In this document: positions 13,770 to 64,000 of the stretch, piece after piece
How the letters are laid out: each line of letters starts with the position of its first letter
Position numbering within the stretch: the first letter of the stretch is position 1
Virus record (IMG/VR): IMGVR_UViG_3300025120_014919
Location: 41,614-105,613 of that record
Reading direction: 5' to 3' (one strand)
From: a virus
Length of the DNA stretch: 64,000 bases
Made by a program: the position numbers and the translations under genes
The notes under the pieces: generated by a model
The model's input: only the letters and a program-made list of their open reading frames with translations
Databases searched by the model: none
What the model was told of the DNA's origin: nothing

Positions 13770-13947
13770 TAATAGTACAATGAAAAATACAAAACTCTTT
13801 AAACCAGGAGTTTTGTATATACTAAAAAACATTAATAAAACTGAAGAAGGCTATACATATACCTTTACAGTTAATGGTGAGTCTAAAGACATTAAGTTCA
13901 ATAGTGTACAGCAAGCTGATGAGTGGTTGAATACTATTATTTTTTAA
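13741..13947 (+). CDS. Hypothetical protein
   Basis: Likely start MKFIPG at 13741; overlaps both neighbours. Confidence 0.55.
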   Translation: MKFIPGAKFSNSTMKNTKLFKPGVLYILKNINKTEEGYTYTFTVNGESKDIKFNSVQQADEWLNTIIF

Positions 13948-14747
13948 TAATAATCACCATATACATCAGTATTGTTCTGAGACATATCAAATATATCATT
14001 TTTACTAACGTTATCTACATTGTAATCGTCGTACCCTGGCTTCTTAGTTTGTGATTCTGGGTTTGTACCTCCGCTTAATCTACCACTAAATGAATCTTCA
14101 AATACTTGATTATTACCTGAAATACCTTCAAACCTATTACTTGCGTTTTTATTATTGAAAGGTATATTAGGTTCGAAACTATAATCTAGACGTTTAGCTT
14201 TTAATAAAAATACGTAATGACCTCCTAATTGATTCATTGCTAATATATCTTGATCTAATTTTTGTGTAATTTCAAAATATTTACCTTGTCTATCATTCGG
14301 TCTATCGTTACCATATTCACTTAATTGGAATATATCACCTGCTTTAGGCTCAACTATACTGTATTGATTTTCAAAGGCACCACTTAAAGTAAAAAAGGTA
14401 TCGAAAAAACTAGATATATGAATATATGCAGTAATTTCATCATCACTTTCAAAACCATATTGTGAAAGAGTAATTGCATTTTCATTTAAGGTTGCTGCTA
14501 AAATTAATTTTCTAGGCTCAGCAAATACTTTATTAGGGTCTTCACCGTAAAAATTATCTGCACTTAATACGTTATATGTATTGACGAAATAATCTACCTT
14601 TGTACCATATAAATTAATTTGTTCTCTCCACCAATTACTAAACAAAGTTCTTTCATTTTCCTGAATAGATTTATCAGAAAATCTGAAACAAGTTTCATCG
14701 GTTTGTACTAAACCTGGGAAATCACAATTATAATCTGGTTGGCTCAT
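13944..14747 (-). CDS. gp14: Neck/head-completion protein (gp14-like)
   Basis: EQINLYGTKVDY, FYGEDP, LSQYGFESDDEIT, EPKAGDI, FEIT. Confidence 0.75.
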   Translation of the reverse strand: MSQPDYNCDFPGLVQTDETCFRFSDKSIQENERTLFSNWWREQINLYGTKVDYFVNTYNVLSADNFYGEDPNKVFAEPRKLILAATLNENAITLSQYGFESDDEITAYIHISSFFDTFFTLSGAFENQYSIVEPKAGDIFQLSEYGNDRPNDRQGKYFEITQKLDQDILAMNQLGGHYVFLLKAKRLDYSFEPNIPFNNKNASNRFEGISGNNQVFEDSFSGRLSGGTNPESQTKKPGYDDYNVDNVSKNDIFDMSQNNTDVYGDYY

Positions 14748-15073
14748 CTTTCAATTACAAATTTATTTAAGTTAGAATCAAAATACAATTTAATACCAGT
14801 ACTACCTAATTTTTTAACTTCACCTTTATAGGGTATTACCTTATACTGGCTTTTTATATAATCTAAATCAACAGGAAAGCATACTTTCTTACCATGACCG
14901 TCTCTTAATTGTTCAATTTTTTGATTTTTAGATGGATCAGTTTTTAAGTAATCAGCCATTATGTTACCTTTTTTACGACTATTACTATTTGGTATAACTT
15001 TTCTATGCCAGTGTTCAACCCCTGGTTTAGGCTTCTGATATTTATTCTCAAAAAACTTATCAAATCTTAACAT
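14744..15073 (-). CDS. Basic hypothetical protein, candidate head-internal protein
   Basis: 109 aa; MLRFDKFFEN; TAAATA-N5-ATG. Confidence 0.7.
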   Translation of the reverse strand: MLRFDKFFENKYQKPKPGVEHWHRKVIPNSNSRKKGNIMADYLKTDPSKNQKIEQLRDGHGKKVCFPVDLDYIKSQYKVIPYKGEVKKLGSTGIKLYFDSNLNKFVIER

Positions 15074-15087
15074 ATTTATATTTATGG

Positions 15088-15116
15088 AAAAAAAAGCACA
15101 ACCAAATGGTTGTGCT
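15088..15116 (-). terminator. Rho-independent terminator
   Basis: Stem AGCACAACC/GGTTGTGCT with a 4-nt loop and a T-run on the minus strand, downstream of gene 16010-15138. Confidence 0.8.
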
Positions 15117-15137
15117 CTCTTTAATTATGTATTTTTT

Positions 15138-18317: not shown

Positions 18318-21300
18318 ATGGCACGTACAATACAATCTCCCGGAGTAGAAATAAAAGAAATTGATTTAAGTTTGAGAGCAAACTTACCAATAGGTACTAA
18401 TATTTTAGTACCAGGGTTTGCTGATGAAGGACCAACAGATCAAATTATTCAAGTTACATCAAGAAGTGAGTTTGAAACTATTTTTGGTCTACCTAAGACA
18501 CCAGCTGAAAGATATTTTTACCATACAGTTACACCATTATTTGATTCACCAGCAAAGGTAAGCGTATATAGATTACCTTATGGTTCTAATAAAGGTGAAG
18601 GCTTTTCTTCAAACTATAGTGCATTAGCATATCCTGCTAAAGGTATTAGTATTAGTACAGAAGGAGCTGGTGCATCAGCAAAAGCTTCAGTTCATGAAGT
18701 TGCATTACAGACAAGAACATCTGATAATACATATTTTGGAGCTGCATCAGCTAGTTTAAGTGCATTCCAAGTTACGACACCTGATGGTACAGTTGCAGAA
18801 GCACCAGCATTAACACTTAACGATCCGTCAAACAAATTTGTATTTAGACAATATGATGGTTCAAATGCAGGTATAACAGTTACTGGTGGTTCTAATGCAA
18901 TACCATTTGGTTTTACAACAGCCCTTTCAGGTGGTACTGATTTTACAACCAATGTAAAGTATTTCTCAGGTGGGTTTGATAAAGCATCAGGATTTCCTCT
19001 AGATACAGCTGAGGAAGTGACCTTAGACTTTTATAGAAACACAGTATTACCTACAGTTTCAGGTGCAGTAGTAGCATTTACAGCATCAGGATCAGTATCA
19101 GGTAGTAATAAAGCACCATTCGTACAAGTTACTGCAGCAGATGGTGATAATTTAAGTCTTTTCTATACCGCTGCATCTTCGGTTAAGACTAAAGTATTAG
19201 GAGGAGTTACCCAAACAGTAACTCGTACAAATGGTTACCCTGACGGAGGCGCTGGTTTCTTTGGTAATACAGTTAATCTTGATTTTAATGAAAATAGCGA
19301 AATACAAGGTTCAAATTATGGTCAAGGTTTAACCACATATAATGAGCAAGCTTCAGGTAACTTGTTTGTTCTAGGTAAGCCAATACATTTCCAACTTACT
19401 GAAGACCAATACAACAATATCCTACAAAAGAAGACATTTGATTGGGAAAATAGTATTGCAACATCTGCTACTTTAAGTAGTTTTGGTGAATTAGGTAAAT
19501 CAGCAATGATTGTTCTAAATAAAGGTCAAACATCAATTGATGATAAGTTCCAAGGTTTTTATGTTGGTGCTCTTGATAATACAAATCTTAACCCAGCGAC
19601 TAATTTTGATGGATTATTAACTGTTGAATCAGTAGCTCAATCAGCTAATATAACATCCACATATACCACACTACCAGTACAAAGACTTGATTTCTCATTA
19701 TCTTCGATATCTGATAATAATACCGATACATTCGGTCAAGTTACTGATAGTCTTTCAGAAATAATGGAGAATGTGCAGTCATTTGATATATCTGATAAAG
19801 AATTCGATGATACGATTTCAGTAGGATTGTTTAGATTAAATCGTTCTAATTACTCACCAGACACCATTAAGTTAGCAGCTGGTTTAGGTGAAAAATATGT
19901 AGGTACATTCGATTATCATCGTCAAGTTAATAATCCTAATGGAGGTACACCAGAAAGCTTCTCATTGGAAACAAAAGAAGATGGTTCACCTAATGTTCAA
20001 ATTATTGTTAATGAGTTCTTAAGTCATAAAGATGGTAGTTCATATTTAGATATTAACGGTAATCCGACAACTAAGATAAGATTAGGTTCATCTAAGATTG
20101 ATAGTAATGCATCTTCATTTGCAGATAGAATAACTTATTTCCAACAATTATCTACAGAATATGGAGCTACGACTCGTACGCAAGCAACAATTCTATCAGG
20201 AGCGGTTGAATCAGCAGTTACAAGTGATATATTCCCAGCAGATTCGTTGTTTCCTTTAGGTAGCTACCAAAATAGTAGTAATGCTAAAGTTAAGAATTTA
20301 GGGTCTATACCTAAGAAGTTGAATAGATTAACTGATCTAGCAGAAGATCGCGATTTATTTGATATCGATCTTACAGTAGATGGTGGTTTAACTACTATTA
20401 ATGCAGTTTCTGAATACTTAGAACGAGGTGGTAAAGGTAAATACTTTGATGATACGGTATCGGTTTCAGCTATTGAAGGTTTTTATGAATCAAATATATT
20501 AGATATATCACCTGAAGCAGTAGCATTTAGAAGCGACTGGAAGACAGTATTTGATGTATTTGCTAATTTTGCAGAATTCCGCAGAAAAGATCATATGTTT
20601 ATTGCTGACTTACCGAGACATATATTCGTTCAAGGTAAAAACTTTAAGACATTAAATGATGATACTAAGAGCTTTTCATTTAACTTGATGAACCCACTAC
20701 GAGCAATGGTATCAGTAGTCAATACAAGTTACGCAGCAACGTATGCTAATTGGGCTCAAGTTTATGACCCAGTTTTAGATGACCAAGTTTGGGCACCAAT
20801 CTCAGGCAATATAGCGAAAACGATGGCTAATTCGGATAGTAATTTCCAACCATGGTTTGCACCAGCTGGATTCACTAGAGGTATTATTACCGGGGTTAAT
20901 GACTTGGCACTATATCCAAAGCAGTCACAGAGAGATCAATTATACAATCGTTCAATTAATCCTATAGCATTCTTTCCGAATGAAGGTTTTGTAACATTTG
21001 GTCAAAAGACATTGCTTAAGAAGCCAAGTGCTTTCGATAGAATTAATGTAAGAAGACTATTCTTAAATCTAGAAAAAGCAACTAGACGTACAGTTAAGTT
21101 CTTCGTATTTGATCCGAATACGTTAGTTACCAGAACAAGGTTAACAAATGTAATTCAACCTATATTTGAGAATGCTAAAAATACTGAAGGCTTATATGAT
21201 TTCTTAATTGTATGTGATGAAAGAAATAATACACCAGAAGTAATCGATCAAAATGAGTTAAAGGTAGATATATACCTGAAACCAGTAAGAGCAGCAGAAT

Positions 21301-21359
21301 TTATATTAGTTAATTTCTTTGCTACCAGAACTGGTGTTGATTTCAACGAACTTATTTAA
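18318..21359 (+). CDS. gp18: Contractile tail sheath protein, enlarged (1013 aa)
   Basis: SPGVEIKEID, PWFAPAGFTRG, GQKTL, FDRINVRRLF, CDERNNT, KPVRAAEFI. Confidence 0.95.
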   Translation: MARTIQSPGVEIKEIDLSLRANLPIGTNILVPGFADEGPTDQIIQVTSRSEFETIFGLPKTPAERYFYHTVTPLFDSPAKVSVYRLPYGSNKGEGFSSNYSALAYPAKGISISTEGAGASAKASVHEVALQTRTSDNTYFGAASASLSAFQVTTPDGTVAEAPALTLNDPSNKFVFRQYDGSNAGITVTGGSNAIPFGFTTALSGGTDFTTNVKYFSGGFDKASGFPLDTAEEVTLDFYRNTVLPTVSGAVVAFTASGSVSGSNKAPFVQVTAADGDNLSLFYTAASSVKTKVLGGVTQTVTRTNGYPDGGAGFFGNTVNLDFNENSEIQGSNYGQGLTTYNEQASGNLFVLGKPIHFQLTEDQYNNILQKKTFDWENSIATSATLSSFGELGKSAMIVLNKGQTSIDDKFQGFYVGALDNTNLNPATNFDGLLTVESVAQSANITSTYTTLPVQRLDFSLSSISDNNTDTFGQVTDSLSEIMENVQSFDISDKEFDDTISVGLFRLNRSNYSPDTIKLAAGLGEKYVGTFDYHRQVNNPNGGTPESFSLETKEDGSPNVQIIVNEFLSHKDGSSYLDINGNPTTKIRLGSSKIDSNASSFADRITYFQQLSTEYGATTRTQATILSGAVESAVTSDIFPADSLFPLGSYQNSSNAKVKNLGSIPKKLNRLTDLAEDRDLFDIDLTVDGGLTTINAVSEYLERGGKGKYFDDTVSVSAIEGFYESNILDISPEAVAFRSDWKTVFDVFANFAEFRRKDHMFIADLPRHIFVQGKNFKTLNDDTKSFSFNLMNPLRAMVSVVNTSYAATYANWAQVYDPVLDDQVWAPISGNIAKTMANSDSNFQPWFAPAGFTRGIITGVNDLALYPKQSQRDQLYNRSINPIAFFPNEGFVTFGQKTLLKKPSAFDRINVRRLFLNLEKATRRTVKFFVFDPNTLVTRTRLTNVIQPIFENAKNTEGLYDFLIVCDERNNTPEVIDQNELKVDIYLKPVRAAEFILVNFFATRTGVDFNELI

Positions 21360-21451: not shown

Positions 21452-22516
21452 ATGGCTGACAGTAGACTTACAGATTTACCAAACTTTACAGAAATAGACA
21501 ATAATGATATTTTATATATTGTTGATGTGTCACAGGATACATCCAATAAAATAACTTATGGTAATTTAATAGGTAATAGAATAGACACAATAAGTAATAC
21601 AATAGACAGTTTAGGTATACCTAATATTGCATCTCTAACCACTAAGGTTGCAACTCTTTCGGTCATACAAAGAGACAAAGCAGACCAAAGTTCTCTTAAT
21701 GCTACTGATGTAAGGGTAGAAGACTTAGAAATCGATAATACAGCAAATAAAAATAACATTGCCCAACTTCAAATAGATACAGGGTCATTATCAGGTACAG
21801 GTATTGCTGGTAAAGCACCTTTATCCGCTATACAATTAATTAATAGTACTACTAGTTTCTTATCTACTCAAATTGATACAAAAGCAACTCTTGTAGAAGA
21901 TAGTTTAAAAGTTAATCAAACACAATTTGATAGTTTATCAAGTATAACATTTAATTTATCATCAGGTATTACCTTTAACGAGCAAGATATAGATTTATTG
22001 CAAGCAGCTAATAATACACTTGATTCTGAATTTCAGGTGTTGAGTACTAATGTAACAACTTTATCTACAATAATACCGAATTTAGTATCTAACACAGTAG
22101 CATTTGAATTAACTGCAGGTGTGCTAGACTTAGAAGACGCTGTCGATGATATAGAAACTGGTCTTAGTTTATCAGCTACAGTTATAAAGGTACCATTTGA
22201 TATTAACATTCAAAGTAATACTAATGTATTATGTACATATACAGGGTTAACAGGTGCTCAAGGGTTATCATCAATTCCAATCGAACCTAATATATTAGGT
22301 ACTGTAGTAACTGCATATATTAGTTCAGGTAATATGAACAGATATTTAAGTATGGAAGGTTTAATAACGCAGACGGTAGTAGTTAGTAGTGGTGCTATTG
22401 AATTTAATGCTTTTAACCCTACAGGTAGTACTATAACCTTTGATGATGAAACTTTAATCTTTTATGTAGACAACGCTCTCAAGTATACAAGATATATTGA
22501 AAGAGGTAGTGAATAA
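21452..22516 (+). CDS. Putative virion coiled-coil fibre/decoration protein
   Basis: N-terminal MADSRLTDLP...YIVDVS..SNKIT attachment-like motif, heptad-like core, own late promoter, between sheath and tube. Confidence 0.6.
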   Translation: MADSRLTDLPNFTEIDNNDILYIVDVSQDTSNKITYGNLIGNRIDTISNTIDSLGIPNIASLTTKVATLSVIQRDKADQSSLNATDVRVEDLEIDNTANKNNIAQLQIDTGSLSGTGIAGKAPLSAIQLINSTTSFLSTQIDTKATLVEDSLKVNQTQFDSLSSITFNLSSGITFNEQDIDLLQAANNTLDSEFQVLSTNVTTLSTIIPNLVSNTVAFELTAGVLDLEDAVDDIETGLSLSATVIKVPFDINIQSNTNVLCTYTGLTGAQGLSSIPIEPNILGTVVTAYISSGNMNRYLSMEGLITQTVVVSSGAIEFNAFNPTGSTITFDDETLIFYVDNALKYTRYIERGSE

Positions 22517-34103: not shown

Positions 34104-34110
34104 TTTACAA

Positions 34111-34431: not shown

Positions 34432-34435
34432 AAAT

Positions 34436-38605: not shown

Positions 38606-38619
38606 TTATAAATATTAGT

Positions 38620-40305: not shown

Positions 40306-40307
40306 AA

Positions 40308-46383: not shown

Positions 46384-46384
46384 C

Positions 46385-52408: not shown

Positions 52409-52788
52409 ACATACACGACATAATAAAATATATAAAATCTTTGAATCGTGTTGGGTGCAGTGCTTTTAAGTTTATATCACAAACAGAGTTAATTAATCAA
52501 TATAGAAATACTGACTTTACACTTGTAGAAGATTTAAGCTATGATTCAAAATTAGTTAATTGGGAAAATATAAAAGATTATTCACCCAATATTACGTTAA
52601 AAATAGATAGGAAAATAAAAGATAAAAAGTTAAATTTATATTATAAGAATGTTGTTTATAATGACGTATTAAAAAATCCGGTAGTTATAGGCCACCAGGG
52701 GTTAGTAATTGATGGTTATCACAGATTAAAAAATATACAAATTAATAAATTAAGTTTTAATGCTTGGATAGCGACTAATTATAAATAA
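52396..52788 (+). CDS. Small protein with ParB/Srx-like motif
   Basis: NPVVI...LVIDGYHRL; start uncertain. Confidence 0.5.
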   Translation: MVRLNIHDIIKYIKSLNRVGCSAFKFISQTELINQYRNTDFTLVEDLSYDSKLVNWENIKDYSPNITLKIDRKIKDKKLNLYYKNVVYNDVLKNPVVIGHQGLVIDGYHRLKNIQINKLSFNAWIATNYK

Positions 52789-52819
52789 CTAATATAGATA
52801 ATATAGACTAAATAATAAT

Positions 52820-54640
52820 ATGGCCGTAGGATTAACAAATAAATGTATAAACGCAACTTACCAAGGTTTAATAAAAACATGCGATAATCTAGTTTTACCC
52901 GCCGATGGGCAAGTACTTTTAACAGATGGACAAGGCACTGAGTCTAGCCTTAGTATTGGTAAAGCCAATAATGGTATTAGCGTACTTGGAGTTTCAACAT
53001 TGTGCGGTAATATCACGCAAGAAGGTTCAAGCACCACAACGTTAAAAGCTACTACTATCACTGGTGCAGGTACAGTATGCGGTGCTACACTTTTATGCAA
53101 TAGTGCTGAAGTTTGCTGCGCGCTTACTACACATGCTAATAATACTTTTTGCGGAGAATGTACATTTGTAGAAAAAAGAGCTGCTATAGGTTCTAATACT
53201 AATGCTGATGACTCTACAATTTTAACTGTAAAATCAACGTGTGAAGATTGTTCAGCTGTTACTTTAATAGGTAACGGTGTTAGCCCCCATATACGATTAT
53301 TTGAGGAAGGGGCAGGAACATGTTTTGCAGTAGGGTTGGATAGTAATGATTCTAATAAATTTAAAATTGTTAATGGCCCGACAATGAGTCAAAATAATGC
53401 AATAGTTATAACAGCAGGTGGTAAAGTAGGTATTAATAACTCACCATTAGCAACTTCAGAAGAATTTAATGTTTGCGGTAATTCTTTATTTTCAGGCAAT
53501 ACCACCATTTGCGATTCAGCTTTAAAATTAACTAGAGATTCATCTATAGAAGTTTCTAACGGTACAGGTAATGTCGGTGAATTTATAGGAAAAACGACAG
53601 CAGGTCGTTTAACATGGCAAAGCCCAGGTGGTGGTGCAAATTGCACTGGTAATATATGTAGCGGTACTACAGTATCTCCAAACATATTACCGAAATTTCA
53701 AGACCCTGGAGGAGGAATCACAACTTCATGTACTTTAACAGATAGTAATATAAGTGATGATGGTACTACAGTCTTAGTACAACAACAATTGAATGTAGGT
53801 GGCAACACTTCGTTTATAGGAAGTGCTCACTTTTTAAGTACTTTAAAAGATGAAACTGCTGGTAACGGGGTAAATGGTCAAGTTTTAACTTCTACTGGAA
53901 GTGGAATAAAATGGACAAATTGCAATACTAGTGCAGGTTCATTAGAAGTTCAAAGTACTTTTAATGTAACAGGTGGTCTTACAGGTGTACCACAAAGTTT
54001 TAACGGTACACAAGACGTTAATATTCCTGTTAATGCAATAAATGCTGCATGTTTAAAATCAGGATTAGTACCACAAGCTAGATTACCTGACATTAATGCA
54101 TGTCAATTACAAAGTCTAAATTTATCATCACCTGGTAATAGATTTAATGTTATCACGCATGTTGAAAATGACGGTTCAATGGAAATAGGAAGATTTATCG
54201 ACTTTCATTTAGATACGACGAGCTCATCTAATTGCAACGCAAGTATACAATTATTCGATAACAATAGAATGCATTTTACCGGAGCGAATGTTTCAGAATT
54301 CCAATTTGATGGTAACGTGTGCTCAACCAAAGATATTATAGCTTTTACAACATCTGATAAAAATCTTAAAAAGGATTTAAGTTGCATAACTAATAGTAAT
54401 AACATTATTAATAATTTAAATTCATATTGCTTTAAATATAATGAAAAATCTGGTAGAAATAATGAATTAGGTATCGGTTTTATTGCTCAAGAAGTTGAAG
54501 AAGTATTACCAAGAGCTGTCCAAACTAGAGAAGATGGTAGTCTTGCAGTTGATTACTTACAATTTATACCAATTCTTTCAGAAGAAATTAAAAGATTAAA
54601 TTCAAAAATAGAAGAATTAGAATCTAAGATAGGCAATTAA
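52820..54640 (+). CDS. Cys-rich tail fibre with S74-like chaperone; paralog of 42734-44374
   Basis: KDIIAFTTSDKNLKK, GFIAQEVEEVLP, VDYLQFIPIL; N-terminus shares KTCDNxxLPADG with the paralog. Confidence 0.88.
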   Translation: MAVGLTNKCINATYQGLIKTCDNLVLPADGQVLLTDGQGTESSLSIGKANNGISVLGVSTLCGNITQEGSSTTTLKATTITGAGTVCGATLLCNSAEVCCALTTHANNTFCGECTFVEKRAAIGSNTNADDSTILTVKSTCEDCSAVTLIGNGVSPHIRLFEEGAGTCFAVGLDSNDSNKFKIVNGPTMSQNNAIVITAGGKVGINNSPLATSEEFNVCGNSLFSGNTTICDSALKLTRDSSIEVSNGTGNVGEFIGKTTAGRLTWQSPGGGANCTGNICSGTTVSPNILPKFQDPGGGITTSCTLTDSNISDDGTTVLVQQQLNVGGNTSFIGSAHFLSTLKDETAGNGVNGQVLTSTGSGIKWTNCNTSAGSLEVQSTFNVTGGLTGVPQSFNGTQDVNIPVNAINAACLKSGLVPQARLPDINACQLQSLNLSSPGNRFNVITHVENDGSMEIGRFIDFHLDTTSSSNCNASIQLFDNNRMHFTGANVSEFQFDGNVCSTKDIIAFTTSDKNLKKDLSCITNSNNIINNLNSYCFKYNEKSGRNNELGIGFIAQEVEEVLPRAVQTREDGSLAVDYLQFIPILSEEIKRLNSKIEELESKIGN

Positions 54641-55449
54641 CCTGAAACGGTACCTGAAAAGGTTATATCTTTAATAGGTAATTTCAATTTACCGCTATAG
54701 GCTATACCAAATTTAACCCTATAAGGTATAATTGAAGGGTCTAATCCTGTATTAAAAGTAAATACATTAGTATACTCATCAAAAATATTGTTTCTAAAAT
54801 CTAACTGATAAGTGGTTAGATTATTGCTAAATCTAATTCTAATATTTTTATTTTTAGTATTAAAATTAAACAACTCACTTTCATCTAATACCTTTGTAGT
54901 TAAATGCTGATAAGTTGTATCACCGCTAACTCTTAATGTAATAGATTTAGGACTTCTTTCTGTAAGGCCAGTAGACACATCTCTAAATTTAGTTGATAAG
55001 CAATAACCACCTGATAAATCTATAGCTAAAGAGGCAATATGCCCGGACATATTAACTGAAGTAGTTTCTAAATGATCTGTTGGTGATAATAAACCTAAAC
55101 CATCTCCTGCTGAACCGTGGGTCATTAATGTATCAATCCCATGCCCGGCTGGATCTGCATCAGAGTCAATAAGAAAAAATACTATACCATCTCTATAAAA
55201 ATTATAACTATCAATATCAACCCCTATATTTCTATTACTTGGAAAAAGACCATCAGGTTCTTCACCTTGTATATATAAGTTTTCCGGGCTTGAACTATCG
55301 ATATTATTTTCACCAAGAATATTAATATCAATCTCAGGTATATTAACCGATACATATATATCATCCTGAGGGTCAAAAGATGAAAGCTCCGGGTTAAACA
55401 CAACTCTATTATGTTTACTTAATGACATTGAATCGTACGATACACTCAT
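54637..55449 (-). CDS. Legume (L-type) lectin-like late protein
   Basis: DGIVFFLID...AGDGLGL...LAID and KFGIAYSG pattern; late promoter. Confidence 0.5.
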   Translation of the reverse strand: MSVSYDSMSLSKHNRVVFNPELSSFDPQDDIYVSVNIPEIDINILGENNIDSSSPENLYIQGEEPDGLFPSNRNIGVDIDSYNFYRDGIVFFLIDSDADPAGHGIDTLMTHGSAGDGLGLLSPTDHLETTSVNMSGHIASLAIDLSGGYCLSTKFRDVSTGLTERSPKSITLRVSGDTTYQHLTTKVLDESELFNFNTKNKNIRIRFSNNLTTYQLDFRNNIFDEYTNVFTFNTGLDPSIIPYRVKFGIAYSGKLKLPIKDITFSGTVSG

Positions 55450-55453: not shown

Positions 55454-56263
55454 TTATTTAATTAAAAAAAATAGTTTAATATAGTCAATTATTTCTTGCA
55501 TTTTTTCTTTTGATATTACTTTTTCAAACTCATCAATAACGTCATCGTATTTTTCACCTAGTTCTATTCTACCAGCTACATAATTATTAAACCTATCTTC
55601 GTATGTGTTATTAAAAGGTATACCATGCGGTCTACCAAATCTATGTAACCATTTAAAGTTTTTAACACAAATACATCTACCTCCTTTTTTTCTGTACTTA
55701 TTATGTATGTAGTATTCCTCTCCACCAAAACCTTTAAATATTTCATTAAAGCCGATCCATTCATTTTTTTTACATGAAAAAACTCCCATTCCTTGCGCTG
55801 GTATTTCTTGATAAGATTTATTAATTTTTATATTATCCCACTTACCGAAAAAATAAGACCCCCACTCTTGTTTTAAATAATTACTTTCATTTTTTAAATC
55901 ATCTAACAATAGAGGTCCTTGTACCAAATCGAAAGGTTTGTGGTAATTATCGTAAAAATCTTTTAACGCGTCAAAACTTTTCAAAGGAAATAAAACATGA
56001 CAATCACATACAACTACTATATCATTTGAAGCATATTTAAATATTTCACCTTTAACCGCGGTACTAGTTTTCTTATTATATGTGTAGTATTTTATCTTAT
56101 TTGACGTACTAGCTAACTGTTTACAAAGCTCAGAATGTTTAGACGTTGGGTTATTATCTACTATTATAATTTCTGTAACTAACGGATGGTATAATTGTAA
56201 ACTTTGAATAGTAAAATATACCCCATCATAATCATCATAAGTACACATTCCTACGGTAAACAT
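55454..56263 (-). CDS. GT2/GT-A glycosyltransferase (start revised from 56332 to 56263)
   Basis: TVGMCTYDD, IIIVDN, CDCHV (DxH), GFGGEE; TAAATA-N5-ATG at 56274-56263. Confidence 0.85.
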   Translation of the reverse strand: MFTVGMCTYDDYDGVYFTIQSLQLYHPLVTEIIIVDNNPTSKHSELCKQLASTSNKIKYYTYNKKTSTAVKGEIFKYASNDIVVVCDCHVLFPLKSFDALKDFYDNYHKPFDLVQGPLLLDDLKNESNYLKQEWGSYFFGKWDNIKINKSYQEIPAQGMGVFSCKKNEWIGFNEIFKGFGGEEYYIHNKYRKKGGRCICVKNFKWLHRFGRPHGIPFNNTYEDRFNNYVAGRIELGEKYDDVIDEFEKVISKEKMQEIIDYIKLFFLIK

Positions 56264-56318: not shown

Positions 56319-56516
56319 ATGAGTAAGTACAATGCTATACGAGAGCAATTGCGGGTAGAAGTAGATAAAAAACAACAAGGTACAGTCGATACCGTTTTAA
56401 GAGATATAGAACTAAGACATAGCCAAGATGATTTTTGTGAACAGTATGTAAAGTTACAAGATGTAGGCTTCAGTCCATACGATTGTTTAATTGCATATAT
56501 GAAAGGTATAAAATAA
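56319..56516 (+). CDS. Hypothetical protein
   Basis: 65 aa after a sigma70-like promoter; TAATG coupling to guaC. Confidence 0.6.
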   Translation: MSKYNAIREQLRVEVDKKQQGTVDTVLRDIELRHSQDDFCEQYVKLQDVGFSPYDCLIAYMKGIK

Positions 56517-57535
56517 TGAATACAGCTTATAGTTACAAAGATATAGTATTACAACCTGCTTACTCGGAAATTAGATCAAGATCATCTTTAGATGTATCGG
56601 TAAAGTTTTTAGGTAAAACATTTGAAAGTGCTGCTATACCAGCTAATATGAAATGCACTATTGATTTTAATAAAGCAAAAGAGTTAAGTGAAGCTGGTTA
56701 TTTTTATGTACTGCATAGATTCTACGATTACGAAGATATTATAGATTGGATGGTCGAAAACAAAGATATGAGAACTATTTCAATATCTGTTGGAGTAAAT
56801 AAAAAGGATCGAGATTTTATTGATAAGATTGTAGAAAAAGATATAGGTGTAGATTTTATTACTATTGATGTAGCCCATGGTCATCATGTGCTAGTGAAGA
56901 ATATGATTACATACATCAATAATAAATTAAGTGTCAATGTTATTGCAGGTAATGTAGGTACTTACCAGGCAGCTAAAGACTTATATGATTGGGGAGCTGA
57001 TGCAGTTAAAATTGGATTATCGATGGGTAAGAGCTGTACTACGTATAACTGTACAGGTGTAGGTACCCCGATGTTCAGTGCAGTCTCATCTATTGCTAGA
57101 AAGAAATTTAGTAAGTATGTAGTTCATAAGCAAGGCGGTTTAGCTGGTGAATATAAAGAGATATCAATACCTGTTATTGCTGACGGTCAGATTAGAGAAG
57201 TAGGTGACGTATGTAAAGCATTAGTTGCAGGAGCTAATATGGTAATGATTGGTAGTGAGTTTGCAAAGTGTGAAGATAGCCCTGCTGACATTATAGGAGG
57301 ACCTGCAATGGGTAATACTAATAAGAAAGTTTTTTATGGTAGTGCCTCATCAACAAATAAAGGTCATCAGGGTTTTGTAGAAGGTCAGACAGTATATATG
57401 GATATGAGAAACGAGACTTACATACAATATTTTAATAGGTTAAATCAAGGTATTCAAAGTTGTATGAGTTATGCGGGGATTGAAAATATTTTTGAGTTAA
57501 TACATATGGATTTTCAAGTACATACCAATAATTAA
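56516..57535 (+). CDS. guaC: GMP reductase (IMPDH/GMPR family, no CBS domain)
   Basis: PANM, HRF, IDVAHGH, IAGNV, GADAVKIG...SCTT, FYGSAS, VEG; start revised to 56516. Confidence 0.85.
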   Translation: MNTAYSYKDIVLQPAYSEIRSRSSLDVSVKFLGKTFESAAIPANMKCTIDFNKAKELSEAGYFYVLHRFYDYEDIIDWMVENKDMRTISISVGVNKKDRDFIDKIVEKDIGVDFITIDVAHGHHVLVKNMITYINNKLSVNVIAGNVGTYQAAKDLYDWGADAVKIGLSMGKSCTTYNCTGVGTPMFSAVSSIARKKFSKYVVHKQGGLAGEYKEISIPVIADGQIREVGDVCKALVAGANMVMIGSEFAKCEDSPADIIGGPAMGNTNKKVFYGSASSTNKGHQGFVEGQTVYMDMRNETYIQYFNRLNQGIQSCMSYAGIENIFELIHMDFQVHTNN

Positions 57536-57539: not shown

Positions 57540-58439
57540 ATGAGTAAAACCAATTACGTTATTTTTAACCCTGAAGGAGGGCTTGGTAAAATAATTGCTT
57601 CAACAGCAATAATAAAGTTCATTCAGAAAAAATACCCAGATCATAAAATAGTAGTTATAACGCCTTGGGCTGAAATGTTTTTAAATAACCCTAGAGTTGA
57701 TAGAGTTTTTAAATCAGGTAATCATCCATATTTTTATAAGGACTATATTGAAGGTAGAGAGAGTGTTGTACTAAAAGGTGAACCTTATTTTAACACTGAA
57801 CACTTATATAGTAAACAACATTTAGTTGAATCTTGGTGTGCTCTTCATGATTTACCATTCGATGGAGATATAAAACCAGAGTTATATTTTAATATAGCTG
57901 AAAAAGATTATTATGGAAATAATATTTCAGCTGATAAACCTATTCTTTTATTGCAAACTAATGGAGGACCTTATGATGATGCTAAACAATATTCATGGAC
58001 CAGAGATATACCACAATCTCAGTCGCAAATTTTAGTAAATGAATTACAAAATCAATATAGTATTTTCCACGTATGTAGAAAAAACTCACCTCATTTAAAA
58101 GGGGTAGAAAGAATTGATCAAGTAGATAATAAAAGAACATTTTTATCTTTATTGTTTAAATCACAAAAGCGTTTATTAATTGACAGTTGCATTCAGCATG
58201 CTGCAGCTGCTTTTGAATTACCATCGACTGTTTGTTGGGTAGGTACATCACCAGATGTGTTCGGCTATAAAATTCATAACAATATATTACCTGAATCGAA
58301 AATAGTATCTGAAACTGGTGGTAGAATGATAGATAGTTTATTTTTCGATCATGATTTTAATGGCCCTGAGCATGAATACCCTTTTGAAGATTATGGTATA
58401 TTTAACCTGCAGAAGGTTTATGATAGTATTGTCAAATGA
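57540..58439 (+). CDS. GT-B glycosyltransferase (GT9/heptosyltransferase-like)
   Basis: EGGLGKIIAST at the N-terminus and IDSCIQHAAAAFELPSTVCW. Confidence 0.75.
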   Translation: MSKTNYVIFNPEGGLGKIIASTAIIKFIQKKYPDHKIVVITPWAEMFLNNPRVDRVFKSGNHPYFYKDYIEGRESVVLKGEPYFNTEHLYSKQHLVESWCALHDLPFDGDIKPELYFNIAEKDYYGNNISADKPILLLQTNGGPYDDAKQYSWTRDIPQSQSQILVNELQNQYSIFHVCRKNSPHLKGVERIDQVDNKRTFLSLLFKSQKRLLIDSCIQHAAAAFELPSTVCWVGTSPDVFGYKIHNNILPESKIVSETGGRMIDSLFFDHDFNGPEHEYPFEDYGIFNLQKVYDSIVK

Positions 58440-59260
58440 AAGTAATTTTTAACTCTTCCATGCCTCGAGCATGTAGTACTTTATTACAAAATATATTTGC
58501 TCAAAACCCTGCTTTTTATGCTACACCAACAGATGGGCTTTTAGAGCTTTTAGAAGGAGCAAGACAACGATTTACAGATAGTGTTGAATTTAAAGCAGCA
58601 GTAGATCAAGATTTAGCATTACAATCTTGGCGTAATTTCTGTAAAGGTGGTTTCGAAGGGTATTGTAATACATTAACTGATAAACCATTTATTATTTTAA
58701 AAGGTAGAGGTTGGAAAGGTAATATTAGTTGGGTAGAAAATTTCTTAAGTGAAAAACCTGTAATTTTTTGCATGGTAAGAAATTTAAAAAGTATAGCAGC
58801 ATCATTTGAAAAATTACATAGAAAGAATCCAGATAAAACTTCCCAGTGGTTAATAAATTATGAAAACAGAGGTACTACTGTATATAAAAGAGTTGATATG
58901 TATTTAAATAACATACCTGTAAGTATTAGTCTAGATAGAATACAAGAGATACATGAAATGGGTTCAGAACAAAAAATAATGTTTATACGTGCTGAAGACC
59001 TTGCTTCTAAACCTGATGAAATAATGAATGAAATTTATGATATTTTAGGTTTAGAAAGATATAATCATAACTTTAATAATATCGAGCAAATTACAAAAGA
59101 AAACGACGTAATACATGCCCTAGATAATGACTTACACACTATTAGAAATAAAGTAGAACCTTTAATAGATAACTATCAAGAAATTATTGGTTTAGATGGA
59201 TGTAAGTATATAGATGATAATTATAGATGGTACCAAGAAAAGTTCGGGTATATTGATTAA
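58436..59260 (+). CDS. PAPS-dependent sulfotransferase
   Basis: 5'-PSB-like SMPRACSTLL, 3'-PB-like MVRNLKSIAAS, IRAEDL. Confidence 0.8.
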   Translation: MKVIFNSSMPRACSTLLQNIFAQNPAFYATPTDGLLELLEGARQRFTDSVEFKAAVDQDLALQSWRNFCKGGFEGYCNTLTDKPFIILKGRGWKGNISWVENFLSEKPVIFCMVRNLKSIAASFEKLHRKNPDKTSQWLINYENRGTTVYKRVDMYLNNIPVSISLDRIQEIHEMGSEQKIMFIRAEDLASKPDEIMNEIYDILGLERYNHNFNNIEQITKENDVIHALDNDLHTIRNKVEPLIDNYQEIIGLDGCKYIDDNYRWYQEKFGYID

Positions 59261-62200
59261 ACGCTTATTTTAAGTGTACCGCTATCGTTCCAAACAACAC
59301 CAGCTATGCTTGGATCAGAGGTGGGTAACGTTGAAGCTTTTAAGAATAATCCATTTGCATGTAACAAATTAGATGAGACTGTTGTAATACTTGTACCAGC
59401 AATAACCGAATTAATATCATCTACCCTGACGCAATTACATTGACCACCTAAAACCGCTGAATTACCACCGCATGCCTGGTTACAAAAACCACCAGTAACA
59501 ACTGAACCGCCTCCATATGCTGTATTACGACTACCAGCCCCGATAAACGCTTTACTTCCTACCGCATCGTTCGCGCAACCAGCACCGATAAACGAATAAG
59601 ACGCAGCATTAACAGTTCTATTATTTCTACCACCTCCAACAATTGAACAATCTGCATATACAGTATTGCACATACCACCTACAATAGATGAATGATCGTT
59701 TCCAACGCATATAAGATTTTCAAACCCACCACCGATGAATGTATTATTACTACGGTTACAATTACTACTACCTCCAACTATACTAGCTGATAGACCGGTT
59801 ACTGCATTACTTGTACCACCGCCGATGAATGAATGACTACCAGTAGCTCTACTACTAAACCCGCCAACTATAGTTGAGTGTATTCCTTGAGCTTGATTAC
59901 TTGTACCACCTACTACAGATGACCTAAGAGCGGTGGCTTCATTTTCGCCACCGCTACCTACAAATGACCCGTTACCGGTAGCTTTATTATTAGCACCGTT
60001 ACCTACAAATGAATAGTTCTGGCATGCCAAATTGGTATTACCTTGTACTATAGTACTGTGAGTGCCGCATGCTTTATTCATATAACCACCACCAACAAAT
60101 GAACAAGCACCTATAGCACAACTATAGGTTCCATTAATGTTTGAAGCGCCACTACCGCATGCTTTATTCTGATAACCACTAATACCTACAAATGAGTAAG
60201 CACCGGTTGCGTAACCCCTTCTACCACCTCCAACAAATGAGTAAGCACCGGTTGCGCTATTACCATAACCATTAACTACAGTTGTATTATTACTGGAAGC
60301 TAAATTACTATAACCATTTCCGATAAATGAGGTTGCACCGGTAGCTCGATTACCATTCAAACCTCCTACAATAGCTGAATGTGAACCAGTCGCACAATTA
60401 GCATTACCACCACCAACAAATGAGTTTGAACCGGTAGCTTGATTATTAACACCACCAGTAATTTTACCAACTCTAATATCACCAGCTGATAGAGTATTGG
60501 TAGTTAAATTATTACTTGCCTTAACATTGGTTGCTGATAGCGTCACAGCTGTTAAATTGTTACTAGCTTTAATATTCGTCGCTGATAGCGTCACAGCTGT
60601 TAAATTGTTACTAGCTTTAATATTCGTCGCTGATAGCGTCACAGCTGTTAAATTGTTACTAGCTTTAATATTAGTACCTGATAAAGAAATAGCTGTTAAA
60701 TTATTACTTGCCTTAACATTGGTTGCTGATAGCGTCACAGCTGTTAAATTGTTACTAGCTTTAATATTAGTACCTGATAGAGTAACTGCAGTTATATTAT
60801 CACTAGCCTTTATATTATTAACAAATGTCGTACAAGCTGCATCTGCTGTTATATTACTACCTATAATAAATGAACAAGTATAAGAAGTGTCGATTACATT
60901 AGCCTTACCACCGAATATACCTGAATAATCAGCTTTAGCACAATTATGACAAGATGGGTTACCGTTAGTATAACCGCCACCGACAACAATTGAACAAGCA
61001 CCTGTTGCGGAATTATACCCACCTGAGCCGATGAATGAATTATTACCACAAGCGTTATTATTTTTACCAGCACCAACAAATGATTGACATTTTGTCATAT
61101 TGCAATATCCACCACCAATGGCTGATTCATTACCACAAGCAACATTTAAACACCCACCAGTGACACCTGATTTACTACCACAAGCTTGATTAAAAAAACC
61201 ACCACCCACGAATGAACAACCACCAATAGCTTTATTGAAGGAACCACCACCGATGGATGAATGAACACCGGTAGCACAAATATAATAACCATTTCCGACA
61301 AATGACTTATCACCGGTTGCTTGATTGAGATAACCATTTCCGATAAATGAGGTTGCACCGGTAGCTCGATTACCATACGTACCATTTCCGACAAATGAAC
61401 AATTACCAGTAGCATGATTACAAGTACCACCACCAATAAATGATCTAGCACCGGTATTTGTATTACCAAACCCAGCAGTAATTTTACCAACTCTAATATC
61501 ACCAGCTGATAGAGTATTGGTAGTTAAATTATCGCTAGCTTTAATATCAGTTGCTGATAGTGTAACTGCAGTTAAATTGTTACTAGCTTTAATATTCGTC
61601 GCTGATAGAGTAATAGCCGTTAAATTGTTACTAGCTTTAATATTCGTCGCTGATAGAGTAATAGCCGTTAAATTGTTACTTGCCTTTATATCAGTTGCTG
61701 ATAAAGAAATAGCTGTTAAATTGTCAGTAGCTTTAATATTCGTACCTGATAGAGTAATAGCCGTTAAATTGTTACTGACTTCAACATTACCGCTAGTAGA
61801 AATAGCTAATTTATTTTGAGCAGCATAAGACGATTGATTACCATCAGAAGCATAACCAATATTAAATCCAGTCTGTAAATAGCCTGAACCAATAAACCAT
61901 TCACGATTACTAGCTGCAGCTGCGCTATTTTTGCTATCTTGGATTTTAATACCAGCTCCACGGCCTTCATACCCGTTAATGTCTATTATAGCAGCAACCG
62001 CTGGTGAACCACCACTATCAGGTACATCTAATTTAAATAAGGTATCTGACTTAATTGAGCCACCTGCATCTACGCTACCAACGGCGTTAACATCACCACT
62101 TAAGTTTATAGAACCTGTAATATCGAAACCAGATAATTCAACCGAAGTGATATCAAGATATCTTACATTGGATGAAACAGCTGTTATAACTGTAGCACTT

Positions 62201-64000
62201 AATGATTCCGTAACTATATAACCAGTATTTGCAATATTTGTACTACTTAATGTTGTTGTAGTTAAATTATTACTTGCTGTTAAATTATTACTTGCCTTTA
62301 TATCAGTAGCTGATAGAGTAACTGCTGTAATATTATCATTAGCTTTTATATCAGTAGCTGATAGAGTAATAGCCGTTAAATTGTTACTAGCTTTAATATC
62401 AGTTGCTGATAGAGTATTGATTGTAATATTATCACTAGCTTTAATATCGGTAGCTGATAGAGTAATAGCCGTTAAATTATTACTTGCCTTTATATCACCA
62501 ATAACATCTAATTTAGTAACCGGCTGATTAGTTCCGACACCAACATTACCTGCAAAGTAATTAGGATTAGAACCTGAAGCACTTAAAGAACTATTCGTTT
62601 CAATCTGACCAACAAAGAAATTACGATTAGAACCTAAAGCACTTAAAGAACTTTTCGTTTCAATATAACCATCAACTAATAAATTACTAGTAGCTGATAT
62701 CGTGGCAGAAGCTAAATTGTTTGAAACTAAATTATTTGAAGCTTTTATATTAGTAGCTGATATCGAGGTAGAAGTTAAATTATTATCAGCTTTTATATCA
62801 ATAGCTGATAGAGTAATAGCCGTTAAATTATTACTGATTGTTAAATCAGAAGCTTCAATTTTTGTCTCTAATACTGGTACAGTTAATCTACCTGTCGCTG
62901 ATATATTACCTACAACCGTTAACGTTTCATTAGGGGTGTTAGTACCAATACCTGTACGATTATTTACTGAATCTACAACTAGATTATTATTACCTATATT
63001 AGCTGATGTACCTATTACCAAATCACCGTTTGAACTAATATTACCTGAAACTGTTAATCTTTCTGCTGGGGTATTATCTCCAATACCTATTTTAGCTCCA
63101 TCAGCAAAAACAATACTATCTCCACCTACATCCTCAAATGTTGCTAATGTACCTGGTCCACAGAATTGTTTTAAAACTAAAGCAGGGTCTGAATCATAAC
63201 TAAAAACTGATAATGTACTAGTTGTTATGTTTAATGTAGTATTAAAAACACCTGTTACTAACAAATCTCTTGCTGTAAGAGTATCAGTTTCTATAAAATC
63301 ATTTGCCCATATACCGTTAGTAGATAAAAGATTAACATAAGCTCTATCAGCTGATAATCTTTCAGCAGATAATGAACTAACTTTAATACTATCAGCTGAT
63401 AAAGAATTGCCTGATAAAGACTCTACATTTATAAAATGTGATGAAAGACTATTAGCTGATAAAGTAAACGCATCAATATAATTAGCAGATAAAGATTTAG
63501 CTGATAATGAAATAACACTAATGAAATTTGAAGATAAGGATGCAGTTGATAATGAAACTATTTCTGTTGAACCACTAATAATATTTTTACCAACAAAAGC
63601 ACCTGTACCTGGGTTAAGTATAATATCACCACCAACACCATTAACTGAGTTAGCTCTTCCTCCGCAAATTAATATATCTCCCCCTTGTGAGTTAACTTCT
63701 TCCGAATCACCACCGCTTAGTGTAATACCTCCACCGATACCACCAGGGCATTTATTTCTTAATCCTTTAATTAATATCTGTTTAGCGCATGCATCAGATC
63801 TATTATCATCTATACATACATATAAATCACTACTAAAATCTCCACTTATGGTATTTATCGCTGTTTCAGAACTTAATCCAATTTTGTTAGTGCATACTTG
63901 ACCAACTTTAAAAGTTTTAATTGCATATGGTCCTATGTTAAATACATCAGCTGATATTGAATGAACACTTAAACTTTTTGTTGTACAATTACCTTGACCT
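59257..64000 (-). CDS. Giant repetitive tail fibre/adhesin (at least 1580 aa; true start outside window)
   Basis: By hand translation the frame stays open from 63264 to the window end. It has IGIGTNTP/LTVxGNISA fibre motifs, 16-aa stalk repeats, YadA/Hep-Hag-like 15-aa repeats and the C-terminus LPTSDP...GVVWNDSGTLKISV. Confidence 0.88.
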   Translation of the reverse strand, partial: GQGNCTTKSLSVHSISADVFNIGPYAIKTFKVGQVCTNKIGLSSETAINTISGDFSSDLYVCIDDNRSDACAKQILIKGLRNKCPGGIGGGITLSGGDSEEVNSQGGDILICGGRANSVNGVGGDIILNPGTGAFVGKNIISGSTEIVSLSTASLSSNFISVISLSAKSLSANYIDAFTLSANSLSSHFINVESLSGNSLSADSIKVSSLSAERLSADRAYVNLLSTNGIWANDFIETDTLTARDLLVTGVFNTTLNITTSTLSVFSYDSDPALVLKQFCGPGTLATFEDVGGDSIVFADGAKIGIGDNTPAERLTVSGNISSNGDLVIGTSANIGNNNLVVDSVNNRTGIGTNTPNETLTVVGNISATGRLTVPVLETKIEASDLTISNNLTAITLSAIDIKADNNLTSTSISATNIKASNNLVSNNLASATISATSNLLVDGYIETKSSLSALGSNRNFFVGQIETNSSLSASGSNPNYFAGNVGVGTNQPVTKLDVIGDIKASNNLTAITLSATDIKASDNITINTLSATDIKASNNLTAITLSATDIKANDNITAVTLSATDIKASNNLTASNNLTTTTLSSTNIANTGYIVTESLSATVITAVSSNVRYLDITSVELSGFDITGSINLSGDVNAVGSVDAGGSIKSDTLFKLDVPDSGGSPAVAAIIDINGYEGRGAGIKIQDSKNSAAAASNREWFIGSGYLQTGFNIGYASDGNQSSYAAQNKLAISTSGNVEVSNNLTAITLSGTNIKATDNLTAISLSATDIKASNNLTAITLSATNIKASNNLTAITLSATNIKASNNLTAVTLSATDIKASDNLTTNTLSAGDIRVGKITAGFGNTNTGARSFIGGGTCNHATGNCSFVGNGTYGNRATGATSFIGNGYLNQATGDKSFVGNGYYICATGVHSSIGGGSFNKAIGGCSFVGGGFFNQACGSKSGVTGGCLNVACGNESAIGGGYCNMTKCQSFVGAGKNNNACGNNSFIGSGGYNSATGACSIVVGGGYTNGNPSCHNCAKADYSGIFGGKANVIDTSYTCSFIIGSNITADAACTTFVNNIKASDNITAVTLSGTNIKASNNLTAVTLSATNVKASNNLTAISLSGTNIKASNNLTAVTLSATNIKASNNLTAVTLSATNIKASNNLTAVTLSATNVKASNNLTTNTLSAGDIRVGKITGGVNNQATGSNSFVGGGNANCATGSHSAIVGGLNGNRATGATSFIGNGYSNLASSNNTTVVNGYGNSATGAYSFVGGGRRGYATGAYSFVGISGYQNKACGSGASNINGTYSCAIGACSFVGGGYMNKACGTHSTIVQGNTNLACQNYSFVGNGANNKATGNGSFVGSGGENEATALRSSVVGGTSNQAQGIHSTIVGGFSSRATGSHSFIGGGTSNAVTGLSASIVGGSSNCNRSNNTFIGGGFENLICVGNDHSSIVGGMCNTVYADCSIVGGGRNNRTVNAASYSFIGAGCANDAVGSKAFIGAGSRNTAYGGGSVVTGGFCNQACGGNSAVLGGQCNCVRVDDINSVIAGTSITTVSSNLLHANGLFLKASTLPTSDPSIAGVVWNDSGTLKISV
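60483..60815 (-). repeat. 48-bp tandem coding repeat (NNLTAVTLSATNIKAS), block 3
   Basis: Units start at 60533, 60581 and 60629; the first two are identical 48-mers. Confidence 0.9.
61503..61775 (-). repeat. 48-bp tandem coding repeat (NNLTAITLSATNIKAS), block 2
   Basis: GCTGATAGAGTAATAGCCGTTAAATTGTTACT recurs with a 48-bp period. Confidence 0.9.
62250..62835 (-). repeat. 48-bp coding repeat, block 1 (interrupted, more degenerate)
   Basis: TLSATDIKAS units at about 62290-62495 and 62690-62835. Confidence 0.8.

Follow-up and report, generated by a model that had tools for sequence, protein, structure and literature searches.

Does a short Ser-centred motif that recurs in the tail proteins of a large phage mark the sites at which enzymes encoded beside those proteins attach sugars? 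This question is raised by the last 64 kb of a single viral contig of 105,613 bp (IMG/VR record IMGVR_UViG_3300025120_014919, positions 41,614 to 105,613; GC content 29%), a stretch that we call the window and in which coordinates are counted unless the contig is named. A first-pass annotation made from the sequence had noticed that Leu-Ser followed by a small residue recurs in late proteins of the window, in the company of genes for glycosyltransferases (GTs) and a sulfotransferase, and had read the motif as a selected O-glycosylation sequon used by these enzymes. The part of this reading that concerns selection held up in our analysis, while the tie of the motif to a GT9-like GT and the sulfotransferase beside it did not. 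The motif is a real, clade-wide sequence signature.

An ordered Leu-Ser motif in outer tail proteins

Expected numbers were obtained by shuffling within each protein, and pooled counts refer to 25 structural proteins, the giant fibre at the end of the window being excluded. In this set, Leu-Ser followed by Ala, Gly, Ser or Thr (LS[AGST]) was found 50 times against 22.5 expected (2.2-fold), and it ranked first of 251 patterns of the form XY[AGST] (z 5.8). Enrichment of the motif in structural proteins after composition control is therefore confirmed, with a smaller effect than the first-pass annotation had claimed. Local compositional heterogeneity was ruled out as its cause, since shuffling in blocks of 60, 30 or 15 residues always left the expectation at about 23 (22-23) and none of 1000 shuffles reached 50 (z ~6). 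Patterns of the same composition in another order (SLx, xSL, LxS and SxL) were found 26-28 times each, and xLS, that is [AGST]LS, 41 times. What is enriched is the ordered dipeptide Leu-Ser, followed preferably by Ala or Gly (2.3-2.6-fold at +2) and preceded by Ser or Thr (1.8-fold). An extended repeat behind the motif was ruled out, as the further preferences (S/T at -1, T at -5, A/G at +2) are weak only. Thr in place of Ser gave no excess. The extension of the motif to Val and Ile, which had also been proposed, is weakly supported for Val (VS 1.67-fold) and not for Ile. Motif serines are encoded by both TCN and AGY codons, a diversity that rules out a DNA-word or codon-pair cause. Without proteins 21452 and 46385 (proteins are named by a coordinate of their genes), the pooled count was 32 versus 19.0, and non-structural proteins were at chance in the window (4 vs. 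8.0) as well as over the whole contig (20 vs. 22.7). The giant fibre holds 38 copies, which are not independent because most of them are copies of a tandem 48-nucleotide repeat.

The proteins in which the motif was followed are listed here, with LS[AGST] counts given as observed versus expected.

13944..14747, minus strand: late protein of 267 residues, 3 vs. 0.26; no PHROG or Pfam match, its label as a neck protein being unconfirmed
18318..21359, plus strand: tail sheath of 1013 residues, 6 vs. 2.4
21452..22516, plus strand: fibre of 354 residues whose N-terminal domain is conserved, with a coiled coil in the centre and a beta domain at the C-terminus, 9 vs. 1.41
37364..42068, plus strand: baseplate-periphery module of 37364 (PKD domain), 38620 and 40308, motif-enriched
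42734..44374, minus strand: tail fibre with a recognisable distal-fibre C-terminus, motif not enriched (2 vs. 1.4; homologues 0 vs. 0.5)
44383..49963, minus strand: two large fibre-module proteins of 666 and 1192 residues (44383 and 46385), 4 vs. 1.1 and 9 vs. 2.3
50009..54640, plus strand: two recognisable tail-fibre proteins (799 and 606 residues) and an open reading frame (ORF) of 130 residues, no enrichment (0 vs. 1.6 and 2 vs. 1.8)
54637..55449, minus strand: motif-rich protein of 270 residues, 3 vs. 0.8, downstream of a GT2 gene on the same strand

All examples quoted in the first-pass annotation were found again, namely VLSA, TLSG and RLSG in 13944, SLSA, ALSG, TVSG and ILSG in the sheath, YLSA, RLSG and TVSA in 40308, and GLSA, VLSG, TLSG, NLSA and SLSA in 46385. 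Fibre 21452 does carry the nine copies ascribed to it, at 6.4-fold the expectation and not at the roughly tenfold excess that had been estimated. Copies in the sheath all lie in its variable part (residues 147-626), ahead of the conserved C-terminal sheath domains. The enrichment of 37364, 38620 and 40308 is also present in all their homologues (e.g. 4-6 vs. 0.5-0.7, 5 vs. 1.0 and 7 vs. 1.3), homologues of 44383 and 46385 at about 30% identity retain 9-17 copies, and homologues of 54637 are parts of larger motif-rich proteins that adjoin the GT9-like gene in relatives. Enriched proteins span unrelated folds, among them the coiled-coil fibre, BspA/leucine-rich-repeat-like proteins, the PKD-domain protein and the variable part of the sheath. 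Pfam gave no match for most of the motif-rich proteins, and the profile of the 46385 family gave none in the PDB. No enrichment was seen in the tube or in the gp6-like wedge protein. These data show a clade-specific, Ser-centred motif, (S/T)-L-S-(A/G/S/T), over-represented in a subset of outer tail proteins that consists of the inserts of the sheath, fibre 21452 with its coiled coil, and the proteins of the baseplate periphery and the proximal fibre, with receptor-binding-type fibres at chance.

A generic trait of T4-like virion or fibre proteins was ruled out as the source of the motif by the counts in virion proteins of T4, including fibritin, gp12 and gp34-37 (17 vs. 16.5, 1.03-fold), and of Pelagibacter phage Mosig (27 vs. 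21.8, 1.24-fold, with flat permutation controls). Seven related loci gave 54 proteins, in which LSA (53 vs. 9.3) and LSG (53 vs. 13.9) were the two most over-represented tripeptides, and the LS[AGST] class was found 189 times against 56.4 (z 17.6). The enriched families were constant across 20 related loci (homologues of 46385, 44383, 40308, 38620, 37364 and 54637), and homologues of the 42734 fibre tip, of 50009 and of the gp6-like wedge protein were never enriched.

The evolution of single sites was followed in two families. Six lineages of the 46385 family, at 25-39% identity, hold 66 sites versus 18-41 in permuted controls; 34 of these are common to lineages (controls 0-16), the other 32 being private (controls 16-28). 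Pure positional turnover at constant density was ruled out, as the larger alignment puts most of the excess in shared sites. Motif Ser was kept more often than other Ser (38% vs. 23%; in the 21452 family 62% vs. 39%), and motif Leu about as often as other Leu. Where it was lost in the 46385 family, the Ser had been replaced by Thr, Asn, Lys, Asp or Glu and the Leu by Ile, Ala, Thr, Val or Phe. These substitutions suggest that the Ser is exposed and the Leu next to it buried. In the 21452 family, L113, S114, S138 and S48 are invariant across 22 homologues, down to 28% identity. The AlphaFold2 (AF2) model of the 21452 monomer is confident in the C-terminal beta domain only, the motif-bearing region being of low confidence. 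As judged from these comparisons, the motif looks selected, being order- and Ser-specific, limited to virion proteins, independent of fold and clade-wide.

A GT9-like/sulfotransferase pair tied to a giant fibre

The transferases nearest to the giant fibre lie in an operon that runs towards it.

56516..57535, plus strand: guanosine monophosphate (GMP) reductase, first gene of an operon with the GT9-like gene and the sulfotransferase gene
57540..58439, plus strand: GT9-like (GT-B) glycosyltransferase of 299 residues, starting 4 nucleotides after the GMP reductase gene; assigned by fold match
58436..59260, plus strand: sulfotransferase of the type using 3'-phosphoadenosine-5'-phosphosulfate (PAPS); PF00685 28.5 bits (cut-off 22), PF13469 29.6 bits (cut-off 27)
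59257..63999, minus strand: giant fibre of at least 1580 residues, its N-terminus lying past the contig end; 16-residue and 8-residue LSA repeats, UspA1-like repeats

The sulfotransferase gene overlaps the GT9-like gene by 4 nucleotides, and its stop overlaps the convergent stop of the giant fibre. Its assignment, made already at first pass, agrees with scores above threshold for both the Sulfotransfer_1 and the Sulfotransfer_3 models and with the annotation that homologues carry in Synechococcus phages. The repeats ascribed to the fibre are there too, the 16-residue (48-nucleotide) tandem repeats with TLSAT at 60503-60817, 61480-61776 and 62274-62497, and the 8-residue runs of the SLSA type near 63320-63550. 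Its Gly-rich repeats (59410-60462, minus strand) match the head of UspA1, a trimeric autotransporter adhesin of Moraxella (PDB 3PR7, E 4e-21), and Pfam gave no match in the entire giant fibre.

In the 14 IMG/VR loci that were found with the GT9-like gene of the window, this gene is always inside the fibre module, and the sulfotransferase gene follows it directly in seven of them; the operon order GMP reductase/GT9-like/sulfotransferase is kept in three relatives. At the loci that were found with P0158, a GT of 38% identity, the sulfotransferase gene is directly downstream in 18 of 21 and a fibre like 59257, of 680-2630 residues, directly upstream in at least 12 of 21. By gene order, then, the cassette of giant UspA1-like fibre, GT9-like GT and sulfotransferase is conserved in a second phage lineage. 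In the 32-kb Pelagibacter phage HTVC112P, a GT of 30% identity follows a tail fibre without a gap (L013:6710-9861, gp48-gp49); this fibre has repeats rich in N-T-T and N-T-A, of the same class as those of the giant fibre, and an S74-type chaperone domain at its end. In AG-345-L05, a single-virus genome, the GT and two sulfotransferases are encoded amid very large ORFs. Gene neighbourhoods thus show that the GT9-like/sulfotransferase pair is genetically tied to a giant UspA1-like fibre in several phage lineages. From this repeated linkage we infer, with better support than for any other function, that the pair would work with or on the giant fibre.

Two further observations were made at these loci. 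GMP reductase, a purine-salvage enzyme travelling with the cassette, has the matching place in relatives L014, L015 and L018 (55-89% identity). At L070:1996-8562, a fibre of 2188 residues lies by a GT9-like gene without a sulfotransferase; it holds 43 LS[AGST] versus 15.4, together with strong xLS and LxS, and is probably repetitive.

The naming of the transferase as GT9-like, also taken over from the first pass, is supported by its fold, and no sequence match of the window protein lies above threshold (Pfam, NCBIfam and PDB gave none). The AF2 model from an alignment of 39 sequences had a pLDDT of 93 and a pTM of 0.91, with a Rossmann strand from residue 6. Foldseek matched it to 3TOV (a Veillonella GT9), to the WaaC/WaaF structures 1PSW, 6DFE, 2H1H and 2GT1 (E 1e-12 to 3e-9, TM 0.5-0.65) and to TibC (E 7e-8). 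PF01075 matched a few relatives marginally and exceeded its cut-off of 22 in only one, a fused relative (22.9 bits), and the family profile reached WaaF in the PDB at E 0.13, covering the DSG-H-AAA motif only; the nucleotide-sugar motif D-S-x-x-Q-H-A-A-A is common to the window protein, WaaF and WaaC. The family counts 694 cluster representatives, with 513 close homologues in samples of marine origin, and it seems to be carried by phages and located in fibre modules. Its members P0156, P0211, P0234, P0174, P0176 and P0178 are fusions with an FkbM-type methyltransferase or a GT25 domain, an arrangement that points to glycans being built stepwise.

Further genes for sugar and sulfate metabolism were found in the window and elsewhere on the contig.

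55454..56263, minus strand: GT2 glycosyltransferase (PF00535, 40.7 bits, cut-off 23.3), ATG at 56263
5856..8951, plus strand: nucleoside diphosphate (NDP)-sugar genes, coding for an RmlD-like reductase, an RfaE-domain-II/TagD-like nucleotidyltransferase, a short-chain dehydrogenase/reductase (SDR) epimerase/dehydratase and a dTDP-glucose-4,6-dehydratase-like protein
Contig 9510-14950, outside the window: second sugar cluster with a GT32-like protein (Gly_transf_sug), Nucleotid_trans, an RmlD-like reductase, a short DegT aminotransferase, a PIG-L deacetylase and an SDR epimerase
Contig 33660-34449, outside the window: gene like that of adenosine-5'-phosphosulfate (APS) kinase (PF01583, 38 bits), then a small HxGH nucleotidyltransferase with a sub-threshold ATP-sulfurylase match

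The late-promoter-like element noted before the GT2 gene was recovered: TAAATA stands exactly 5 nucleotides before its ATG, as it stands 5-6 nucleotides before the ATG of most structural genes (~25 starts, e.g. 18318, 21452, 22568, 42734, 46385, 52820, 54637 and 56263). A ribosome-binding site would not fit into this spacing. Across the window, the complete T4 late box TATAAATA shows no over-representation (16 vs. 31 expected). The GT9-like operon has no exact TAAATA box, and its upstream element is, much as had been described, one base off that of fibre 42734.

The NDP-sugar enzymes are present as reported, and the rhamnose that had been thought of in connection with them finds no specific indication: a 4,6-dehydratase and RmlD-like reductases are encoded, but RmlA and RmlC were not found on the contig, which is incomplete. 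The RmlB-like gene scored 352.9 bits with TIGR01181, just below the cut-off of 365, and the RmlD-like genes are weak. A GT-A is also encoded in the QueC locus of the contig, outside the window. The APS-kinase-like and nucleotidyltransferase genes could constitute a phage PAPS supply for the sulfotransferase. No real contig ORF for a polytopic membrane protein, with more than two hydrophobic segments, was found, the ORFs with at least four transmembrane-like segments being spurious antisense frames, and the contig holds no flippase, polymerase, ligase, oligosaccharyltransferase or initiating polyprenyl-phosphate transferase. As far as predicted genes show, the sugar and sulfate toolkit of the phage consists of soluble proteins only.

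By its gene content (terminase, two tube-like proteins, sheath, gp25-like and gp6-like wedge proteins and several tail fibres) the phage is a distant T4-like myophage. The nearest cultured relative is Mosig, with 40% identity over the sheath C-terminus only. The terminase-sheath region had no DNA match in cultured phages, protein 21452 had no tblastn match in them and matched only short contigs in IMG/VR, and a metagenome scan with P0209 as query returned no viral contigs. Portal, major capsid protein and prohead protease were not recognised among the contig ORFs scanned. CheckV gave a completeness of 13-19% for relatives of 28-41 kb, so the genome is probably near 200 kb and the 105.6-kb contig probably about half of it.

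Modification, structure or host envelope

We propose that, late in infection, soluble phage transferases would modify fresh virion proteins in the cytoplasm. The GT9-like/sulfotransferase pair would have the giant fibre as its likeliest target, onto which a sugar would be transferred and afterwards sulfated. With weaker support, the motif's exposed Ser may be a recognition site for post-translational modification by some other enzyme of the kit, with O-glycosylation as the leading candidate. Ser specificity, fold independence and restriction to outer virion proteins would favour a recognition function. This combined explanation is put forward tentatively, as a plausible one that falls short of probable. 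That the toolkit glycosylates the virion in some way is a possibility that we place not far below even, and that L-S-small is the attachment site of such a glycosylation seems unlikely. It is quite unlikely that all elements come together, that is, that a clade of large marine T4-like phages would have a Ser-specific L-S-small sequon and a partly sulfated, phage-made glycan coat that includes the giant fibre, by means of a phage-only GT9-fold transferase of a lysine type and a PAPS supply of its own.

Several results weigh against the motif as a glycosylation site of the neighbouring enzymes. The co-occurrence of motif and transferases across lineages, which the first-pass annotation had proposed as a check, breaks down for the GT9-like/sulfotransferase pair. 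In the P0158-type lineage, 34 large ORFs around the cassette (32.9 thousand residues) contain 96 LS[AGST] against 89.1 expected, with flat permutation controls, and the cassette-adjacent fibres alone about 37 against 41; the fibres of HTVC112P contain 5 against 4.1. Since the cassette occurs there without enrichment, the motif would not be the sequon of this pair. The large ORFs of AG-345-L05 gave 18 against 11.1 (1.6-fold). Two relatives, on contigs of 28-34 kb with the whole tail module, keep the motif, and their fragments carry neither a GT9-like nor a sulfotransferase nor a GT2 gene, which is suggestive only, and a GT2 gene beside the GT9-like gene was found in no relative sampled. Moreover, the magnitude of the enrichment is only 2-3-fold, and the three recognisable tail fibres of the window show none. 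In the 46385 family, the excess is, as aligned, mostly one of conserved sites with a modest lineage-specific part, and structural Ser would look alike; in fibre 21452, Leu spacings of 7, 11 and 28 fit core positions of a coiled coil. With regard to the transferase, the best-known role of GT9 enzymes is the synthesis of the lipopolysaccharide (LPS) core. By register only, counted over strand 1 and a loop of 6 residues, its near-invariant GGxGK (residues 13-17) would face SSMGD of WaaC, and K17 the catalytic Asp13; hhalign aligned only the C-terminal motif. A Lys at this position makes the chemistry of the GT9-like protein uncertain. The GGxGK loop recalls phosphate-binding Gly-rich loops, and the acceptor and the mechanism may differ from those of known GT9 enzymes.

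The conserved-site bias, the coiled-coil register of 21452 and the uncoupling from the neighbouring enzymes keep a structural reading about as likely as modification. The motif would then be a lineage-specific local element, made of a buried Leu, a capping or turn Ser and a small residue, which was inherited in outer domains and is not modified. In agreement with this, most of the excess falls in sites conserved among homologues, Leu behaves as buried and Ser as exposed, the motif of 21452 is at helix ends or core spacings of the predicted coiled coil, that of the giant fibre belongs to tandem structural repeats, and the GT9-like/sulfotransferase cassette goes its own way. Such an element does not readily account for the lack of this bias in T4 and Mosig virion proteins, coiled-coil and fibre proteins included, for the presence of the motif in unrelated folds, for the private sites that are still modestly in excess (32 vs. 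16-28), or for the failure of Thr to substitute statistically, though Thr would be at least as good in beta strands. We regard a purely structural origin as a serious contender that we would nevertheless not bet on. Chance or a compositional artefact has next to no probability left. The motif was picked by eye and looks more prominent than it is through the tandem repeats of the giant fibre, but the signal persists at z ~6 without this fibre and under block shuffles, is at the top of 251 patterns with flat permuted-order controls and is replicated in relatives at z 17.6, so that this explanation is effectively refuted.

The enzymes could also have nothing to do with the virion. GT2, the GT9-like GT, the sulfotransferase and the NDP-sugar enzymes would in that case work at the cytoplasmic face on the LPS or capsule of the host, with export by the host and with the motif unrelated; receptor masking, superinfection exclusion or the avoidance of progeny trapping on debris could be the purpose, and the proximity to fibre genes would reflect a covariation of receptor binding with receptor modification. 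The LPS heptosyltransferases WaaF and WaaC as nearest folds, the family fusions to GT25 (LPS) and FkbM sugar-methyltransferase domains, the independence of the cassette from the motif, and an operon that opens with the metabolic gene for GMP reductase and lacks an exact TAAATA box all fit a remodelling of the envelope. It is harder to reconcile with the tight adjacency to the giant UspA1-like fibre, which is conserved between lineages and extends to a Pelagibacter phage of 32 kb, with the late-type element before the GT2 gene and with the lack of an initiating polyprenyl-phosphate transferase, flippase or ligase on the contig, which the host could supply. On balance, we consider it rather unlikely. 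Some other event at the motif Ser, such as phosphorylation, direct O-sulfation, acylation or docking of an assembly chaperone, is very unlikely: the signal is Ser-specific, fold-independent, virion-restricted and conserved, and a sulfotransferase and an APS-kinase-like gene are at hand, but neither a kinase nor an acyltransferase was identified as a candidate, the sulfotransferase is also found where the motif is not enriched and, to our knowledge, O-sulfation of protein Ser is not established in bacteria or phages.

If the proposed modification of the virion were true, a glycan or sulfate coat on the tails of marine phages would affect adsorption, host range and stickiness to marine gels and sulfated polysaccharides, and it would change how virion proteins in metaproteomes are read. 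Among phages of Gram-negative marine bacteria, it would also be the first case of a virion glycosylation directed by a sequon and the first of a sulfated one. The analysis leaves two separable targets, the L-S-small serines of six protein families and the widely conserved three-gene cassette of giant UspA1-like fibre, GT9-fold transferase and sulfotransferase. It also teaches that an enriched motif beside transferase genes is insufficient to call a sequon.

Comparison with known systems

Our literature searches turned up neither a report that GT9-like enzymes glycosylate tail fibres nor one on the function of phage sulfotransferases, and comparison was made with four systems. In mycobacteriophages, virion proteins are reportedly O-glycosylated by phage-encoded GTs, as Freeman and co-workers are said to have described in 2023. 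There as here, soluble phage GTs are encoded beside structural genes, and a cytoplasmic decoration of virion proteins is proposed for them. The mycobacteriophage system belongs to actinobacterial siphophages and not to a marine T4-like myophage, its GT families differ, neither a short sequon of the L-S-small type nor sulfation is described for it, and the system of the window is a putative one. In Bacteroidota, O-glycosylation follows the sequon D-(S/T)-(A/I/L/V/M/T), which accepts Thr, and takes place in the periplasm, where exported proteins receive a lipid-linked glycan. It resembles the window motif in being a three-residue, Ser/Thr-centred element with a small or hydrophobic neighbour that marks surface proteins; the window motif, unlike it, is Leu-Ser-small, excludes Thr and occurs in proteins that assemble in the cytoplasm.

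The GT9 enzymes WaaC and WaaF are the best structural matches to the transferase of the window and have the nucleotide-sugar motif D-S/T-G-x-x-H-x-A-A-A in common with it. They differ from it in that PF01075 does not match the window protein, and in having, judged by register for WaaC, SSMGD where the window protein has GGxGK. By analogy, the closest working precedent would be the Ser-specific O-heptosylation of beta-helical adhesins by TibC/AAH, GT9-like autotransporter heptosyltransferases (PDB 4RAP, 4RB4), of which TibC modifies Ser and not Thr of its adhesin (PMC4358343). Their BAHT family is defined by an N-terminal beta-barrel, a thumb in the form of a beta-hairpin and an iron finger of four Cys (PMC4358343). 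The window protein, of 299 residues, lacks the N-terminal barrel, a thumb of sufficient length and the iron finger, its four Cys being scattered without CxxC pairs, which places it outside this family. It shares with TibC/AAH a catalytic core of the GT-B/GT9 type. TibC works in the cytoplasm on repetitive, beta-structured adhesins and its gene adjoins that of its substrate, just as the module of the GT9-like gene of the window contains a fibre resembling a trimeric autotransporter.

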